Positions 2,766 to 33,014 of a stretch of DNA of 64,000 nucleotides are shown piece by piece. The stretch's first letter is position 1, and each line of letters starts with the position of its first letter. The DNA comes from an uncultured delta proteobacterium. Lineage in GTDB: Bacteria; Myxococcota_A; Polyangia; Polyangiales; Houyiibacteriaceae. The stretch lies in assembly GCA_963817725.1 (NCBI GenBank), contig CAWFPD010000006.1:132406-196405 (forward strand). The letters are read 5' to 3'. Position numbers and translations under genes: made by a program. The notes under the pieces are model-generated. The model saw nothing but the letters and a program-made list of their open reading frames with translations. It was not told where the DNA came from and did not search any database.

Positions 2766-3437
2766 TCAGCGGTACCGCAGACGCAGCTTGATGCCGAGGA
2801 AGTCGGCAATCTGCTGGGCGTACGAGCGCGGAATCAGATTGAGACGGCCCTCCACGACGGCGCGGGCGCGCGCATGCGGCTCGCCTTTGAGCGCCGGAAG
2901 CACGATCTGACTCCAGGCGAGCAAGGTCTTTCCATCCGCCTTGCTCAGCGCGAGGGTCAACACGGGCTCGAGCCGCTTCTGGTACGCCACCGAAGCCGTG
3001 CACAGGGCAGCAAAGGTTTTGACCAAGCCATCTTTTCCGACGTCGTTGGCCTCTTGGAACGAGCTCTTCAGGACGTCTAGTTGGCGGGCGACGCGAGCCG
3101 GGGCGATCCGGGCAATGGCCGGTAGGGCTTCGGCCGAAGCTTGAACCACGCGCTTGTTCGAGGACGAAATCCCCTTTGCAAACTTCGACACCAGCGGCAC
3201 GACGAGCTCGGGCTTTTCGGTAACGAGCTCACTCAGCACGCGGGCCGATTGAGTAGCCGCGGTCCGAGGCCCTTCCATCATCGTCTCGCCGTGCTCGGCG
3301 ATCTTCGATTGAGGGTTTTCCTCGGCGAGAATCTTTCGAGCGATTGCGGCCGCGCCGCCGCCCTTCTTGGCCGGCTTTCCCTCGGCGGCGCCCTTGTTTG
3401 CCGGGCTCGATTTCGTGCTCTTCTTCTTTGTGGTCAT
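2766..3437 (-). CDS. Hypothetical protein with Lys/Ala-rich N-terminus and helical-repeat (HEAT/ARM-like) body
   Basis: 223-aa ORF with good GC3 bias. Its ATG overlaps the upstream esterase stop (ATGA at 3434-3437). I recognise no catalytic motif. Confidence 0.55.
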   Translation of the reverse strand: MTTKKKSTKSSPANKGAAEGKPAKKGGGAAAIARKILAEENPQSKIAEHGETMMEGPRTAATQSARVLSELVTEKPELVVPLVSKFAKGISSSNKRVVQASAEALPAIARIAPARVARQLDVLKSSFQEANDVGKDGLVKTFAALCTASVAYQKRLEPVLTLALSKADGKTLLAWSQIVLPALKGEPHARARAVVEGRLNLIPRSYAQQIADFLGIKLRLRYR

Positions 3438-9827: not shown

Positions 9828-11315
9828 ATGGCTGAGCCCCATCGACAATTCGAGCGTTTTCGACGGGCTCTTGCGATGTCACCGGCCGTCGTCGCATTGA
9901 TCCTGGCTGCGCTTTGGCTGGCTGGCGTTCCAAGGTCGCGTCCCGATCTCCGTTTCAGCGCCCCCATCGTGGCGCGACCTGGGAAGACGATCGGGCTTCG
10001 TGCTTGGCAGGTGGTCGAAGGACCAAGAGGACAGACGGAGATCGAGACGCCCGAGGTCGAGGTGGTGCTTCGAAACGATGCTGGTTCGACGCTCGCGCAG
10101 ACGATGCTGAGCAAGTCGCTGGTGCAGGGTAGCGAAGGAAGGCTCGCCATTCCCGATGGCCTCGACGACGTGCTTACCCTGGTGGCGCGCGCCACCATCG
10201 GCGGGCAAGAGGTCGCCGTCGAGCGAGTCCTGTACGTCCAGAGGTCGATCGAATCGCGTGCGGAGAGAGGTCGGGCGGTCAACGCGTTTCAGATTGCCGA
10301 GCTCGGGCCGATCCGCGTCTCCAGCACGCGCGGACGAGACGCGGTTCTCGATCCCCGTGTCGAGGAGGGCGCGTGCGTACCCGATCTTTCGTGTTGGCTC
10401 TCGGTCTGGGTGGGAAGCCACGAAGGCCGAGTGCGGATGGTTCCCCTTGCCGGCCTCCCGCGGCGCTCGTCCGTGGAGACGGTGCATCACGGATTTGCGC
10501 GTTTCCCTTTGACGGTGGCAGGCAGCGAAGCGCGAGTCGAAGTCGAGCTGATGAACGCTGATGGCACTCTCGTTGCGGCCCGCGAAGCACGGCTGCCGGT
10601 GGTCCCCGGCGGTATCGTCGCGCGGTCCGCGGTCGAAGACGGCAGCATCCGCTTGGAATGGCACCAGCTCGGCGCTCCGGCTCCCGTGCTGATCGACGTA
10701 TTCGAAGGCGACCGATGGGTCAACGCGCTTTCCCTCGGACCCGCCCACCCGGTTTTTGCGCTGCCCGGCCCAGGCGTTTGGCGAATCCAAGTCCGCGCAG
10801 ACCTGTTCTCGGACAACACCGCGGCGGTGTCGTACGCGGTCGTCCCCGACCCCGAAGGTCCCGGTGCGCTCCGGCAAGCCGCAGATGCCGTGCTCCACGA
10901 GGCGGACCGCGAAGGGCTGGATCCGCTGGCCATGGCCATTTTGGACGGAGAGATCCCCGATGCGGCCGCGGGGGATGCCCTTCGCGCCTTGTTCGCGATT
11001 CCGAGCTTCGACGTCGTCTCTACCGGACCGGGAGTCAGCGCCCGCGTCGGCGACGACGACTCCTTCGAACGTGGGCAGGACCGCAGGCGCTGGCTGGCTG
11101 CTGCCGCCATCTTGCTGATCGGTTTGGTCGTGAGCACGGTCTTACTTCGCATCGAGATCCTGGCCCGGGCCGATGCTCAGCGGCTCTTCGACGCGCTTGG
11201 CGACGAGGCGCAGACCCCGCCTCGGCGTGGTCCGTCTGGTCGCGGCTTGTGGGCGTTCGTGCTGTTCGTCTTCGTCTTGATGGCGGCACTCGCGCTCTCT
11301 AAGCGTTGGTTTTGA
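9828..11315 (+). CDS. Hypothetical membrane protein (N-terminal anchor, large beta-rich exported domain, two C-terminal TM helices)
   Basis: Long ORF with strong GC3 bias and hydrophobic segments at both ends. I recognise no motif. TTG 9816 is an alternative start. Confidence 0.55.
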   Translation: MAEPHRQFERFRRALAMSPAVVALILAALWLAGVPRSRPDLRFSAPIVARPGKTIGLRAWQVVEGPRGQTEIETPEVEVVLRNDAGSTLAQTMLSKSLVQGSEGRLAIPDGLDDVLTLVARATIGGQEVAVERVLYVQRSIESRAERGRAVNAFQIAELGPIRVSSTRGRDAVLDPRVEEGACVPDLSCWLSVWVGSHEGRVRMVPLAGLPRRSSVETVHHGFARFPLTVAGSEARVEVELMNADGTLVAAREARLPVVPGGIVARSAVEDGSIRLEWHQLGAPAPVLIDVFEGDRWVNALSLGPAHPVFALPGPGVWRIQVRADLFSDNTAAVSYAVVPDPEGPGALRQAADAVLHEADREGLDPLAMAILDGEIPDAAAGDALRALFAIPSFDVVSTGPGVSARVGDDDSFERGQDRRRWLAAAAILLIGLVVSTVLLRIEILARADAQRLFDALGDEAQTPPRRGPSGRGLWAFVLFVFVLMAALALSKRWF

Positions 11316-16840: not shown

Positions 16841-18067
16841 TCAGAAGCGTTCTTTGATTCGGCTCGAAGCGGCTTGGTATGCGACCACCAGCACCTGGGC
16901 CAACGCAAGGCCAGCCACGATCGTACCGACCATCCCCGTCAGGATGGTCGCTGCGGCCGGCCCGCCGAGACTTGGCTGCACCCCTCCTGGCGGCCAGAGC
17001 TCGGTGGCGATCAGAAGACCGACATGTAGCGCATAGAGCACCAAGAGCGTCGCGGCCCAGACGTGCGAGCCTCCCCGCGTGCTGCTTTCCATGAAGGCCA
17101 GGAGCGAAAGCACGGCAACGAGCCCGAAGGTCATGTGCGTAACGGCCGGCGCCCAGGACTGCCAATGGCCGTCGAGCGTGATTAGGCTCTCGTGCCCGCC
17201 TGAGACCACGAACCAAAGCCCGAGCGCGGCCACACCACAGGTGACGGCAAGCCGGGCAAGCCGGGCGCCTCGGTAGTACGCGCGAAAGAGCAGGCTGCCG
17301 CTCAACAAGATGGTCGCCCCCGTCAGAATGATCCCCTCGGGCGCGATGACATGAAGTGTCTGCTGCCAAAGGGCGACGCCTGTCGCGATCGAGCCAGTCA
17401 AAAAGAGGGAGATCGCCCGGCTCCGGTACGACATGGGCGTAGTCGCCAACATCGCGATGGTGATCAGCAGAGCGAGCGACACGAACGTCAGGGGATGGGC
17501 GCCACCGGTGAGCAGCGCTGTCACCGCCCCGAGGCCGCTGAGCACCACCGCCACCACTCGAAGCGTGCCGCCGCCGGGTGTGGACGGCCGCATCTGCTCC
17601 CGCAGCAGGTCGGAAGCCAGGATCGGTGGTCCGGGCGGGGCCGCCACGTTGGGGAGGCTCGCATCGCGTTCGGGCGCGGCCGCCGGGGGCGTTTGATCGC
17701 GGCGCTCCGCGTCCGAGGTATCGGGTTTGCTCTCGCTGGCCGTACCGTTCTTTTTCCGACGCAAAGGCAAGACCGGCGCGGGCTCGCTAGGCTCGCGCTC
17801 GCGGATCGTCGTGCGGCTGAGGTGGGTTTGGGTCGGTTCGGCGACTTCAGGTTCGCTCAGCGCCACGGCCGCGATGGCTCGCGCGGATGCGCCCGCTACC
17901 GGCTGGGGAAACGTGTCCCGCCGATCGGGCACGCTTTGCAGGCCGCTTGGCTTGCGCTCGCGCGACAGCGGCACGACCGGCTTTGCACCCGGGACCGGCT
18001 CTCCGCACTTACCGCAGAAAGCGTCAGTCCTCAGCAGGCTCGCGTTGCAGCTCTTGCATTTCGGCAT
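16841..18067 (-). CDS. Zinc-ribbon domain protein fused to a Pro-rich linker and a polytopic membrane domain
   Basis: N-terminal CKSC...CGKC zinc ribbon followed by about 7 hydrophobic helices. Function unknown. Confidence 0.6.
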   Translation of the reverse strand: MPKCKSCNASLLRTDAFCGKCGEPVPGAKPVVPLSRERKPSGLQSVPDRRDTFPQPVAGASARAIAAVALSEPEVAEPTQTHLSRTTIREREPSEPAPVLPLRRKKNGTASESKPDTSDAERRDQTPPAAAPERDASLPNVAAPPGPPILASDLLREQMRPSTPGGGTLRVVAVVLSGLGAVTALLTGGAHPLTFVSLALLITIAMLATTPMSYRSRAISLFLTGSIATGVALWQQTLHVIAPEGIILTGATILLSGSLLFRAYYRGARLARLAVTCGVAALGLWFVVSGGHESLITLDGHWQSWAPAVTHMTFGLVAVLSLLAFMESSTRGGSHVWAATLLVLYALHVGLLIATELWPPGGVQPSLGGPAAATILTGMVGTIVAGLALAQVLVVAYQAASSRIKERF

Positions 18068-18266
18068 CTGGTCCGCCCCATCCTGTCATCCGATCATACG
18101 CGGGACCGAGCGCCCACTTCAACCGGAGCGGTGAGGCAATGTGTGCCTCCCTCCGCCGCTTTCCATCGTTCCAGACTGCGACAATCGGGTGCGCCGCTAT
18201 GACATGAATGTCCTACCGAACCCGGTATTCGAGCCAAAAGGCAGGCCTTTTTGGCCTCTTCGGCGT

Positions 18267-18282
18267 TGGCATCCCGATTGCA
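18267..18282 (+). promoter_or_regulatory. Sigma54 (-24/-12) type promoter with no downstream plus-strand CDS
   Basis: TGGCAT-CCCGA-TTGCA. GG at 18268-18269 and GC at 18280-18281 sit at the canonical 12-nt offset, matching the TGGCAC-N5-TTGCW consensus. Confidence 0.5.
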
Positions 18283-18380
18283 ACTAACGAGTGCGCTTAC
18301 TTAAGACCCTCGCCGTGCACTTTCCAGCTTGCCCGGCATCCGCGCGGCGATGGGTCGTCCTAAATAGAAACGCTTGGCTT

Positions 18381-18410
18381 GCTTGCTCTAACTTGCTCTA
18401 CCTTGCTCTA
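18381..18410. repeat. Three tandem 10-bp repeats (NCTTGCTCTA) with degenerate copies on both flanks
   Basis: Perfect CTTGCTCTA at 18382-18390, 18392-18400 and 18402-18410. Degenerate units lie at 18371-18380 and 18411-18424. Confidence 0.95.
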
Positions 18411-18443
18411 ACTTTCCCACTCTAGCATCGATTCTTCCATCTG

Positions 18444-18473
18444 AAATGGGTCACCGTGTGGTGGCCCATTTTG
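18444..18473 (+). terminator. Intrinsic terminator-like hairpin (plus strand)
   Basis: AAATGGGTCACC-GTGT-GGTGGCCCATTT forms a 12-bp stem with one G.U pair and runs into TTTTGCT. Confidence 0.5.
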
Positions 18474-18497
18474 CTATGAGGCCGAATTTCGCGGGTC

Positions 18498-18532
18498 CCG
18501 AAAAGAAAAGGCCCGCCGGGTTGGGGCGGGCC
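18498..18532 (-). terminator. Intrinsic terminator of the DUF465 gene (minus strand)
   Basis: GGCCCGCC/GGCGGGCC 8-bp GC stem, followed on the minus strand by CUUUUCUUUUCGG. Confidence 0.6.
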
Positions 18533-18602
18533 AACGCGTGCATCCGGTGGTGAGGTGCGCTGAATGACAAGGGTGTGTGGCGGGCCCGCGGAGTGAAGCG
18601 AG

Positions 18603-18797
18603 TTACCCGACCTCCTCGAGGGCGTCCTTGGTCCAAAGCTTCTGCTTCTTCAGCTGCTGGAGCTCCAGCTCTTCGCTCGGCGTGAGGCTCAGACGGTTGT
18701 CGAGCGCTTCTACGCGGGCCGCGAGCTCCGCATGCTTCTTTTCCAGGCGCGACTTCTGCCGCTCAGGCGGGATGGTTCGAGCTTCGTGCTTGGACAT
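18603..18797 (-). CDS. DUF465 (YdcH-like) small coiled-coil protein
   Basis: ATG 18797 preceded by GGAGGT. The C-terminal LKKQKLWTKDALE matches the DUF465 signature. Confidence 0.7.
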   Translation of the reverse strand: MSKHEARTIPPERQKSRLEKKHAELAARVEALDNRLSLTPSEELELQQLKKQKLWTKDALEEVG

Positions 18798-18977: not shown

Positions 18978-19679
18978 ATGAGCTTGCGAGCGACGGTGAT
19001 TGGTCTTGTTTTTTGCGCACTTGCGCTTACCGGCGCCGCAACGGCCGAGGAGCGCCCGCCTCTCGACGCGGCGGCCGTGGTGAGTCTGGTTCAGGCGTTC
19101 TACGACCAAACCAAGACTCTACAGGCTGACTTTGAGCAGACTCGCTATACCCGGCTCTACGATCGCTACGATCGCGCCCGGGGGACCGTGGTGTTCAAGA
19201 AGCCGGGCATGATGCGCTGGGACTACGACAAACCCAACGGTCAGGTATTCGTGAGCGACGGGAAGAAGCTGCTCATTTACCAGCCGCCAGAGGAGGGTGA
19301 AAAGAATGGGCAGCTCATCGAGCGCGCGCTCGACGAAGATCAGCTTCCGTCGGCGTTTTCATTTCTGACGGGCACGGGCCATCTGGAAAAGGACTTCGAA
19401 GTTCGTTTGCTCGAGCACGATGACCAACGGTTCCAAGACGGCTACGTGCTTCAGCTGATTCCGCGCAAGCCCACGCCCAACTACGAACAGTTGGTGTTCT
19501 ACGTGCGGACGATCTCCGAAGGAGACAAGCGCGCGGGGATCGTTCAACGCGTCTTGATCATCGATGCGGCCGGCAACCGCAATCGCTTCGATTTCTCACG
19601 CATCCACTTCAATCGGGAAGTCTCCGACAAACGCTTTCGCTACCGCGCGCCCAAAGGCACCCAGCGCGTCACACCCTGA
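18978..19679 (+). CDS. lolA: LolA-like outer-membrane lipoprotein carrier protein
   Basis: Signal peptide followed by the LolA-family pattern (GTVVFKKPGMMRWDY...VSDGKKLLIYQP). Confidence 0.75.
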   Translation: MSLRATVIGLVFCALALTGAATAEERPPLDAAAVVSLVQAFYDQTKTLQADFEQTRYTRLYDRYDRARGTVVFKKPGMMRWDYDKPNGQVFVSDGKKLLIYQPPEEGEKNGQLIERALDEDQLPSAFSFLTGTGHLEKDFEVRLLEHDDQRFQDGYVLQLIPRKPTPNYEQLVFYVRTISEGDKRAGIVQRVLIIDAAGNRNRFDFSRIHFNREVSDKRFRYRAPKGTQRVTP

Positions 19680-20772: not shown

Positions 20773-22605
20773 TCACTCCACCGTCACGGTTTTGGCGAGG
20801 TTGCGAGGTTGGTCGACGTCCGTGCCTTTGTGGTCCGCCACGCAATAGGCATAGAGCTGGAGCGGGATAACCGTGACGAAGGGGCTCAATACCTCGGGTG
20901 TGGCGGCCACTTCGATGACCGCGTCGCAAAGCGCCTGCGCCTCGGTATCGCCAGCCGTGGTGATGCCGATGATCTTCGCTTCGCGCGCTTTGGCCTCCTG
21001 CAGGTTGCTGGCGACGCGCTCGTAGTGTCGATCTCGCGGCATCAGGACGATGACTGGAACGTGCGCATCGAGCAGGGCGATCGGCCCATGCTTCATCTCG
21101 CCCGCCGCGTAGCCCTCGGCGTGCACGTAGGAAATTTCCTTGAGCTTGAGCGCTCCTTCGAGCGCCATCGGGTAGCTCAGGCCTCGACCCAAAAAGAGCA
21201 CGTCGCGAGCATCGGAGAGCTCGCGAACCATCTCGCTGATCGCGTCGTAGGTCGGCTTCAGGCGCTCTTCGATCCAATGCGGTACCCGCGCCAAATCTTC
21301 GATCAGCGCCGCCGCATCTGCTTGACTGAGTACTCCGCGGCGCTTTCCGAGCCAAATGCTGAACATCAGCAGGTTGGCGAGCTGTGCCGTGAAACATTTC
21401 GTCGAGGCGACGCCGATTTCCGGGCCTGCATGCGTGTAGAAGCTCGCGTCCGCCATGCGAGGGATGGCGCTTCCGTTGACATTGACGATAGCCAGGACCT
21501 TCGCGCCCTGTTCCTTGGCGGCCTTGGCCGCCATCAGCGTGTCGATCGTTTCGCCCGACTGGCTGACCGCGATGACCAGGTCACCCTCTCCGACGACCGC
21601 GTCCCGGCCCCGGAACTCGCTTGCCAGCTCGGTGATCGCGGGAACCTTGGCGAGATCCTCCAGCCAGTAGCGGCCGGCGATCGTCGCGTGGTGGCTCGTT
21701 CCGCAGGCGAGGAGCACGACGCGTCGAATCGCGAGTGCATCCTCGTCGGTCAGGCCGATCTCCGGCGTCAGCACATCGCCGTGCTCGCGGTCGAGGCGCC
21801 CGCGCAGCGTGTCTTCGAGCGCCCGCGGTTGCTCGAAGATCTCTTTGAGCATGAAGTGCTTGAAGCCCGCCTTTTCGGCCATGACGGGCGACCATGAAAT
21901 TCGCCGCGGCCTACGGCTCAGGGCCGCCCCGGCTAACGTGGCGAGCGAGAACCCATCGGCTTCGAGCACGGCGATTTCCTCGTCTTCGACGAACACCATC
22001 TCGTTGGTGTAGGGCAAGAGCGCTGGAATGTCGCTCGCGCAATAGGTTGCCTGACGGGTGACCCCGATCACCAGGGGAGAAGCCTTCTTCGCGACCACCA
22101 CGCGGTTCGGCTCCTCGGCTGAAAGAACGGCGATCGCGTAGGCGCCCTTCACTTGTGCGAGTGACCTGCGAACGGCTTCGACCAGCGGATGGCCGCCCAC
22201 GGTTTCACGATGGATGAGGTGGGCGATGATCTCGGTGTCGGTGTCGCTGCTCATCGTCACGCCGCCGGCTTCGAGCTCGCTGCGAAGCTGCACGTGGTTT
22301 TCGATGATGCCGTTGTGCACGACTGCGATCGGCCCTGCGACGTGAGGGTGTGCGTTGACCTCCGAGGGGCGGCCGTGGGTCGCCCAACGGGTGTGGCCGA
22401 TGCCGACGGTCCCCGGGAGCCCTTTTTGGGCGAGCGCTTGCTCGAGATTTCGAAGCTTCCCTACGGCGCGAACGACCTGAATCCGGCCGTCGCTGTGCAC
22501 GGCAAGGCCCGCCGAGTCGTAGCCGCGGTACTCCAGTCGCCGAAGGCCGTCGAGTAGGATGGGCGCCGCGGCCTCCTGACCGACGTAACCGACGATTCCA
22601 CACAT
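20773..22605 (-). CDS. glmS: Glutamine--fructose-6-phosphate aminotransferase
   Basis: MCGIVGY Ntn start, two SIS domains, C-terminal KTVTVE. Confidence 0.96.
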   Translation of the reverse strand: MCGIVGYVGQEAAAPILLDGLRRLEYRGYDSAGLAVHSDGRIQVVRAVGKLRNLEQALAQKGLPGTVGIGHTRWATHGRPSEVNAHPHVAGPIAVVHNGIIENHVQLRSELEAGGVTMSSDTDTEIIAHLIHRETVGGHPLVEAVRRSLAQVKGAYAIAVLSAEEPNRVVVAKKASPLVIGVTRQATYCASDIPALLPYTNEMVFVEDEEIAVLEADGFSLATLAGAALSRRPRRISWSPVMAEKAGFKHFMLKEIFEQPRALEDTLRGRLDREHGDVLTPEIGLTDEDALAIRRVVLLACGTSHHATIAGRYWLEDLAKVPAITELASEFRGRDAVVGEGDLVIAVSQSGETIDTLMAAKAAKEQGAKVLAIVNVNGSAIPRMADASFYTHAGPEIGVASTKCFTAQLANLLMFSIWLGKRRGVLSQADAAALIEDLARVPHWIEERLKPTYDAISEMVRELSDARDVLFLGRGLSYPMALEGALKLKEISYVHAEGYAAGEMKHGPIALLDAHVPVIVLMPRDRHYERVASNLQEAKAREAKIIGITTAGDTEAQALCDAVIEVAATPEVLSPFVTVIPLQLYAYCVADHKGTDVDQPRNLAKTVTVE

Positions 22606-32072: not shown

Positions 32073-33014
32073 ATGTTCAAGTCGACCTGCGTTTTTTCGG
32101 GAAACTCGAATCCGGCCCTCGCCGAGAAGATCGCGAAGTATCTCGAGTTGCCTTTGGGCCGCGTCCGGGTGTCGCGCTTTTCCGACGGCGAGGTGTTTGC
32201 CGAGATCCGGGAAAACGTTCGCGGCGTGGATGTTTACGTCATTCAGTCGACCTGCGCGCCGGTGAACGACAATCTGATGGAGCTGCTGGTGATGACGGAC
32301 GCGCTCAAACGCGCCTCGGCCGGATCGATCACCGCGGTCATCCCTTATTACGGATATGCGCGGCAAGATCGGAAGGCAGCGCCTCGCACGCCGATCACGG
32401 CCAAGTTGGTCGCGGACCTGCTCAGCGCTTCCGGCGTCGATCGCGTGGTGGCAATGGATTTGCATGCTGCGCAGATCCAGGGCTTCTTCAACACGCCGTT
32501 CGACCATCTTTATGCACTCCCGGTGTTCTTGCAGCACCTGAAGCCGCGATTTCGGACACCTCCGGTCTTCGTTTCGCCCGATGCAGGCGGGGTGGAGCGA
32601 ACGCGGGCCTATGCCAAGCGCCTGGGGGCGGATCTGGCCATCATCGACAAGCGCCGCGAAGCCAAGAACGTCAGTGAGGTCATGAACATCATCGGTGACG
32701 TCAAAGACCGCGAATGCGTGATTCTGGACGACATGATCGATACGGCTGGCACCATCACCAACGCCGCGCGAGCTCTCCGCGACAAGGGCGCCGAACGAGT
32801 CCTAGCCGCCGCCACGCACCCGGTTTTGTCGGGTCCGGCGCTCGAGCGCATTACGGACTCCCCTCTCGAGGAGGTCATCATCACCGACACCATACCCCTG
32901 CGGAAAGAGGCCGAGGAGACGGGGCGCTTCCGCGTGCTTTCGGTTGCAAGTTTGCTAGGAGAGGCCATCAAACGGATTCACCACAGCGACTCGGTGAGCT
33001 CGCTGTTCGTATAA
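32073..33014 (+). CDS. prs: Ribose-phosphate pyrophosphokinase
   Basis: [14 protein letters not shown] start, the [10 protein letters not shown] motif and the PRPP-binding loop [12 protein letters not shown] 32073 chosen. Confidence 0.95.

Follow-up and report, generated by a model that had tools for sequence, protein, structure and literature searches.

The DNA examined here is a 64-kb stretch (hereafter the window) of contig CAWFPD010000006.1 from an uncultured member of the Polyangiales. Our subject is an intergenic interval within it, which lies between a minus-strand gene for a zinc-ribbon membrane protein and a minus-strand DUF465 gene, with a plus-strand LolA gene beyond. An earlier note on this DNA had proposed that a sigma54 promoter and an intrinsic terminator in the interval bound a non-coding RNA of about 180 nt. 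This proposal held in comparative tests: promoter, hairpin and terminator were kept in 35 related genome loci and in 68 contigs from metagenomes (>100 in all), and conservation sets in at the predicted start and stops past the terminator, the pattern that a discrete RNA gene should show. Judged from these comparisons, Polyangiales myxobacteria very likely have here a genuine gene for a small regulatory RNA (sRNA) that had not been described before. It has the general marks of an sRNA: a predicted promoter and terminator of its own, non-coding sequence, and conserved single-stranded regions. The features of the locus are collected in Table 1.

Promoter, candidate enhancer and predicted architecture of the RNA

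Related loci were collected by a genome scan with a LolA alignment, which yielded 80 loci from Polyangiales, Sandaracinaceae and metagenome-assembled genomes (MAGs) of other Myxococcota. In some 37 of these 80 LolA loci the intergenic region could be aligned over about 400 nt, at about 70% identity. The core alignment contains 35 sequences, and conservation of a block is given throughout as its mean majority fraction.

The -24/-12 element that the note had placed at 18267-18282 was confirmed there as TGGCATCCCGATTGCA, with GG at 18268-69 and GC at 18280-81, the fixed doublet spacing of a sigma54 promoter (TGGCAC-N5-TTGCW). With C18281 taken as -12, +1 falls at 18293, in agreement with the claimed start near that position, and conservation resumes at 18293/18294. 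The exact pattern TGGCAY-N5-TTGCW has a single match in the whole 64 kb, which is this site; 0.14 matches are expected in shuffled sequence, and 14 of 100 shuffles contained at least one. The motif match on its own, before comparison with relatives, is only suggestive. In the core alignment, TTGGCAY-N5-(A/T)TTGCA was invariant and the promoter block reached 0.93, while the 10-nt spacer before +1 was variable (0.64). Under the strict pattern, 46 of the 80 LolA loci carried one sigma54 motif each, on the same strand and upstream of LolA, and a relaxed pattern added a few more loci. The motif was essentially missing from LolA loci without the RNA, and loci from more distant Myxococcota did not carry it. 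Two near-consensus motifs with one mismatch were seen elsewhere in the window, TGGCACTCTCGTTGCG at 10562-10577 (+) and TGGCAATGGATTTGCA at 32449-32464 (+); the total of -24/-12 matches with up to two mismatches in the window was at chance level. Sigma54 promoters need an ATPase activator, the bacterial enhancer-binding protein (bEBP).

Upstream of the promoter, the conserved block CTATGACAnnAATGTCCTAC at 18197-18216 contains a core palindrome, TGACA-N3-ATGTC, at 18200-18212. This exact palindrome occurs once in the window, about 87 bp before the predicted start. That distance is within the range of roughly 70-150 bp in which upstream activator sites are found, and the palindrome is likely an activator-protein binding site. 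Among 17 distant loci, 14 had GACA-N4-TGTC 75-135 bp upstream of the sigma54 motif; by our own estimate, about 0.005 such occurrences per locus would be expected by chance. The GACA half-site in CGACAATCG, two helical turns further upstream than the palindrome, is a candidate second activator site to which protein may bind. Between enhancer and promoter sits an A-tract/T-tract element, a candidate DNA bend or IHF-type site. The layout of enhancer and promoter is the standard one for a bEBP-activated sigma54 promoter, and it was kept even where the RNA sequence had diverged. Only L035, a distant locus, has a 34-nt unit, TCCCCACACAGGGGTTTCCTGCGACAGCTCCCGAG, repeated three times in tandem immediately before the enhancer block (about 3070-3175). 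We infer that the RNA is transcribed and driven by sigma54 and a bEBP; of the conclusions that may be drawn about what the RNA does, that of transcriptional control through sigma54 and a dedicated bEBP has the best support.

The predicted RNA comprises a single-stranded 5' tail, a first stem-loop (SL1), a variable linker, a repeat tract, a conserved 3' block and the terminator. The 5' stem that the note had paired between 18311-18318 and 18342-18349 forms in the minimum-energy fold, where it is extended by GACCC/GGGUC at 18305-09/18352-56. Also present is the 12-bp terminator hairpin with a GUGU loop followed by UUUUGCU (arms 18444-18455 and 18460-18471); its GC-rich stem stands directly before the U-tract, as in an intrinsic terminator, and in relatives the stem is kept and the loop varies. 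GC content dips as described, to 0.545-0.55 in the interval vs 0.62-0.72 in the flanks. The three reported repeats exist on the plus strand as CTTGCTCTA(A/C)CTT with 10-nt spacing at 18382-18414; here the claim needs qualification, as the CUUGCUCUA triple repeat of the window is a local, lineage-specific expansion of a family-wide CUU(A/G)(C/G) motif.

The 186-nt RNA folded better than 200 of 200 shuffles (z = -3.2). The reverse strand folded equally well, and therefore fold energy does not decide the strand. Base pairing in the alignment does: frequent G-U pairs, such as the U-G wobble at terminator columns 187:202 in 31 of the 35 sequences, would be A-C mismatches on the minus strand, and therefore the plus strand is the RNA strand.

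Table 1. Coordinates of the predicted RNA, its control region and the neighbouring genes in the window.
Feature	Position	Strand	Remarks
Predicted small RNA, ~186 nt, start to end of U-tract	18293..18478	+	covariance model R1
Sigma54 -24/-12 promoter TTGGCATCCCGATTGCA	18266..18282	+	12/17 positions invariant (35 sequences)
Candidate enhancer (upstream activator sequence) CTATGACATGAATGTCCTAC	18197..18216	+	nearly invariant in core clade
Upstream block CGACAATCG	18179..18187	+	GACA half-site 21 bp upstream of main palindrome; 33-sequence upstream alignment
A-tract/T-tract element AAAAGGCAGGCCTTTTT	18236..18252	+	AAA and TTTT columns conserved, centre varies
Single-stranded 5' tail GCGCUUACUUAA	18293..18304	+	consensus UCGCUUGCUUAA; mean majority fraction 0.94
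Stem-loop SL1	18305..18356	+	helices 18305-09/18352-56 and 18311-18/18342-49
SL1 loop ACUUUCCAGCUUGCCCGGCAUCC, 23 nt	18319-18341	+	invariant
Variable linker	18357..18381	+	mean majority fraction 0.34; length differs among relatives
Three tandem CUUGCUCUA(A/C)CUU copies	18382..18414	+	repeat search; part of CUU(A/G)(C/G) tract
Conserved 3' block	18415..18443	+	consensus ACUGUAGCAUCGAUUCUUUCGUUUG; mean majority fraction 0.86
Intrinsic terminator	18444..18478	+	12-bp hairpin, GUGU loop, then UUUUGCU; majority fraction 0.91
Zinc-ribbon membrane protein, 408 aa (ZnMem408)	16841-18067	-	
Sigma70-like promoter of 408-aa gene	18122-18093	-	TTGAAG, 18 nt, TATGAT; conserved
DUF465 gene	18603-18797	-	own terminator 18532-18510 plus T-run
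LolA gene	18978-19679	+	
glmS	20773-22605	-	GATase plus SIS domains, 610 aa

Conservation and extent of the family

The note had called for a comparison with relatives, and in that comparison the -24/-12 element and both hairpins were conserved, with some compensatory changes. Conservation was highest in SL1, where the majority fraction was 0.96 and 34 of 53 positions were invariant; it was 0.64 in the repeat tract and 0.44 past the terminator. Conservation of the flanking proteins falls far short of that of the RNA: the 5' tail and SL1 were 94-96% conserved, whereas LolA was 70-87% identical in the same loci.

RNAalifold recovered SL1 and the terminator from the alignment. RNAalifold and pair counts showed SL1 paired in 99.8% of cells, with double changes at 3 pairs, and overall 99.4% of cells were paired, with four pairs changed on both sides. 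At columns 25:53, for example, CG was found in 20 sequences, UG in 10 and UA in 5. None of 500 shuffles reached the observed values, and slid controls paired in 34-49% of cells. The distant relatives extend this picture. In eight distant loci (L035, L037, L040, L041, L044, L048, L049, L061), the SL1 apical motif (U)GCU(U)GCCCGGCAU tips minimum-energy hairpins whose stem sequence is different in each lineage, so that the loop core GCUUGCCCGGCAU is kept atop hairpins with unrelated stems. These predicted hairpins are stronger structural evidence than the covariation within the core clade.

Covariance model R1 matched at full length once in each of 36 loci (115-207 bits); the window, too, has one copy, which scored 178 bits. 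A metagenome scan with a 20-nt loop sequence returned 73 contigs, 68 of them in the same gene neighbourhood; the shared order is ArgJ, CAP-domain protein, zinc-ribbon protein (-), RNA (+), DUF465 (-), LolA (+) and glycosyltransferase (-). The five non-syntenic matches (L108, L120, L123, L140, L151) fell in genes that code for protein on the other strand; about as many would be expected by chance, and we took them for neither paralogues nor targets. Read as its reverse complement, GG-AUG-CCG-GGC-AAG-CUG-GAA-AG, the loop at 18319-18341 resembles a start-codon region encoding MPGKLE, and in three of the four distinct genes among the non-syntenic matches, such as a thymidine-kinase-like gene in L123/L151, the ATG is apparently the start codon.

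Distant members of the family are 95-325 nt long, with ends read by eye, and are C- and U-rich. They have in common 5' CGCUUG, the apical motif, repeated GCUUGG/CUUAC units and, towards the 3' end, a (C)UCUAGC element. In core and distant RNAs alike, the CUU(A/G)(C/G) motif was about 3.5- to 4-fold more frequent than in shuffles, with varying spacing and copy number (2-9 copies). Divergent members were present in Sandaracinus MAGs (loci L038 and L041). Three complete MAG chromosomes, CP070713.1, CP070650.1 and OZ245758.1, also have the RNA.

Neighbouring genes and independence of the unit

The genes on either side appear to be controlled separately from the RNA. The minus-strand terminator described for the DUF465 gene was found at 18532-18510, followed by a T-run, and the LolA start was confirmed at 18978, the position given for the next plus-strand coding sequence. 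DUF465 converges 125 nt from the RNA, and no plus-strand gene follows the RNA in the window or in the core clade. The note had raised the possibility that the interval is part of a long 5' untranslated region of the minus-strand gene at 18067. This was ruled out by that gene's own sigma70-like promoter, from which the 408-aa gene would start near 18086; a moderately conserved GTAGGGnGATGTGTGC block lies upstream of this promoter, at about 18128-18145. An antisense effect on DUF465 through terminator read-through, also suggested in the note, found no support, as nothing past the terminator is conserved.

The window LolA is identical to the LolA of a Polyangiales MAG (GCA_049288685.1, contig JBAQIE010000209.1), in which no gene was called in the equivalent interval. 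A distance of 2.3 kb separates the RNA from glmS in the window, and this linkage is kept in 50 of the 80 LolA loci; it may reflect general gene-order conservation. Genes for bEBPs (GAFSGA/GSFSGA, GETGTGK, ESELFGH) stand directly upstream of lolA in four loci (L068, L069, L075, L078), on the minus strand and about 700-1000 nt upstream of LolA. They adjoin lolA only in distant lineages without the RNA and the sigma54 motif. The Myxococcota are rich in bEBPs (PMC12316311).

Comparison with known RNAs and proposed mode of action

The note recognised no known family in this sequence, and searches agreed. All 4227 Rfam models, including Qrr, GlmY, GlmZ and CrcZ, gave no match at the gathering threshold in the window and 13 related loci. 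In permissive mode, the region 18050-18650 returned noise only, at most 20 bits vs thresholds of 35-50, and a tRNA/tmRNA scan found none.

Sigma54-driven sRNAs are already represented in the phylum by Pxr of Myxococcus xanthus (PMC5568312), which is the closest analogue. Like the RNA described here, for which trans action is proposed, Pxr is a multi-stem-loop trans-acting sRNA of the same phylum with a predicted sigma54 promoter, an upstream enhancer-binding region and a conserved first stem-loop, the loop of which is functionally critical in Pxr (PMC5568312, PMC5684412). The two differ in length, 108 nt for Pxr vs about 185 nt here, and in setting. Pxr lies directly downstream of its activator gene pxrR/nla19 and beside pxrA (NADH dehydrogenase), and it is reported only in Cystobacterineae (PMC8538405); the neighbours here are the zinc-ribbon membrane protein and DUF465/LolA, with no bEBP gene within the 64-kb window. 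Homology to Pxr was considered and rejected: the 26-nt Pxr SL1, taken from a published probe (PMC5568312) and the only part of Pxr compared, was unmatched at up to 3 mismatches. In the literature searched, no Polyangiales sRNA was described, and Pxr was the sole Myxococcota sRNA family found.

Better-known sRNAs outside the phylum offer further comparisons. The activator sites of GlmY/GlmZ are built from TGTC/GACA half-sites, the GlrR site being TGTC-N10-GACA. These enterobacterial RNAs resemble ours in sigma54 dependence, in their half-sites and in a cell-envelope theme, with glmS nearby here; they differ in that the palindrome here has the opposite arrangement (GACA-N4-TGTC), Rfam gives no match, and complementarity to the glmS start region was not above background. 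Qrr of Vibrio is likewise short and terminator-bounded, under sigma54 and bEBP (LuxO) control, with conserved single-stranded pairing regions. Qrr RNAs are about 100 nt long, Hfq-dependent and often present in several copies, whereas this RNA has one copy in 64 kb and one per related locus, and no Rfam match to Qrr. CrcZ, driven by sigma54 and the bEBP CbrB, and with it CrcY of Pseudomonas and CsrB/RsmZ, share with our RNA a repeated short motif in unstructured regions with lineage-variable copy number. Where CrcZ has an A-rich motif, this RNA has CUU(A/G)(C/G), and CrcZ too had no Rfam match. A CsrA decoy of the CsrB/RsmZ type was rejected: there is no GGA in the window RNA, and nearly all core homologues have 0-1. 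What GlmY/GlmZ, Qrr and CrcZ share with this RNA is the predicted sigma54/bEBP control logic, not sequence.

Sigma54-driven sRNAs are an established class. On the comparative evidence, we consider it probable that 18293-18478 (+) is a stand-alone non-coding RNA gene, driven by sigma54 and a bEBP, whose RNA acts in trans; its predicted place as a new family of an established kind, the sigma54/bEBP-dependent trans-acting sRNAs, is well supported. Several observations weigh against this interpretation. The window U-tract is short (UUUUGCUAUG), most relatives having UUUUGCUUUU, and a simple terminator scan did not list the plus-strand hairpin at 18444-71. GAFTGA and Walker-A signatures of a bEBP gene were absent from the 64-kb window. 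Covariation within the core clade is modest because little of the sequence varies. In 16 distant loci a gene for a TPR-like lipoprotein (~136 codons; e.g. L037:3153-3560) follows the RNA on the same strand, between it and DUF465; neither the core clade nor any part of the window has this gene. Target searches were negative as well. The loop, set against every 50-nt segment of the 64 kb with its own antisense left out of the best matches, reached about -31 kcal/mol at best, and shuffled loops reached -31 to -37. The loop complement reads AUGCCG..GCAAG, which prompted a comparison of the loop with the start of the divergent 408-aa gene in 32 loci; in most of them, a fraction of 0.1-0.3 of background windows did equally well. 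In 18 loci the 3' half of the RNA was compared with the DUF465 and LolA starts, and the background fractions had medians of 0.89 and 0.41. A GlmZ-like idea, in which three segments of the RNA were set against the start of glmS, also in 18 loci, gave medians of 0.43-0.58. These searches covered a small fraction of each genome.

The mode of action is where the main alternative lies. CsrB/RsmZ, CrcZ and GlmY act by sequestering protein, and the same gene could make an RNA that serves as a decoy, binding an RNA-binding protein through its CUU(A/G)(C/G) repeats and invariant loop. We regard this as unlikely, though it is the strongest of the competing explanations. It would account for a motif that is kept and enriched about 4-fold while its copy number and spacing vary, and for an invariant 23-nt loop on a near-invariant stem, stricter than a typical 7-12-nt seed. 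It also fits the lack of mRNA complementarity in the target searches (the window and the start regions of four neighbouring genes), although negative searches of that coverage are weak evidence. CUU(A/G)(C/G), however, matches no recognised protein-binding motif, and RNAs of the core clade have at most one GGA. Since M. xanthus is reported to be without Hfq (PMC5684412), a different protein partner is plausible. A bolder version, to which we give somewhat less credence still, would make the RNA the centre of a novel RNA-protein module in Hfq-less Polyangiales, a decoy titrating a new type of RNA-binding protein; the sigma54/bEBP input might then perhaps be an envelope or lipoprotein-traffic signal, suggested by the fixed linkage to lolA, the lipoprotein gene and glmS.

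Two further explanations change the nature of the element itself. The lipoprotein gene of the 16 distant loci raises the idea of a leader or attenuator that acts, or once acted, in cis on a downstream gene, the window copy being an orphaned remnant. We think this improbable: in the window and core clade the RNA is followed by no plus-strand gene and faces the convergent DUF465, a functionless remnant would have decayed rather than stay better conserved than LolA, and in the distant loci a terminator-like hairpin stands between the RNA and the lipoprotein gene. It is highly improbable that the interval encodes a small protein, in a TTG/GTG-initiated frame reading LLKTLA.HFPACPASARRWVV. An open reading frame (ORF) of 26-51 codons from RNA position 5 is indeed open in most homologues, and in the window the same frame begins at GTG 18291, where the 44-codon ORF listed in the note was confirmed (18291-18425). 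Inside the most conserved part of this frame, however, 8 sequences have 1-nt insertions and 7 have 1-2-nt deletions, and such frameshifting indels in the only recurrent ORF argue against a protein. The ORF differs among homologues in its length and in the place of its stop, the window and three other aligned sequences have lost the TTG start, and the start would lie only 5 nt from the 5' end of the transcript. Substitutions are paired across the stem, the pattern expected of RNA structure.

For a stand-alone sRNA acting in trans, we propose the following sequence of events. A bEBP encoded outside the 64-kb window would bind the palindrome TGACA-N3-ATGTC at 18200-12, and the second GACA site 21 bp upstream may also serve it. 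The A/T-tract probably aids DNA looping, by which the bEBP would contact polymerase and activate sigma54-RNA polymerase at TTGGCAT-N5-TTGCA (18266-82). Transcription would run from about 18293 and end at the hairpin and U-tract (18444-78). The RNA would then act in trans through the SL1 apical loop ACUUUCCAGCUUGCCCGGCAUCC, the 5' tail CGCUUGCUU and the tract of CUU(A/G)(C/G) motifs. Most trans-acting sRNAs with conserved single-stranded seed regions base-pair with mRNAs. By analogy with these, we lean towards base-pairing as the mode of action, because the 5' tail, loop and 3' block are conserved and single-stranded. If so, target start regions might resemble GGAUGCCGGGCAAGCUGGAAAG.

The locus would add a second sRNA family to the Myxococcota, and it overturns nothing. 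From the enhancer palindrome through a possible bend, the promoter and the start to the effector loop and the terminator, a full regulatory layout can be read from the sequence. Should a cultured Sandaracinus strain prove to have the RNA, it might be used as a model. The palindrome would offer a handle for finding the activator, and the 23-nt loop a handle for finding the targets or the partner protein in organisms that lack Hfq.

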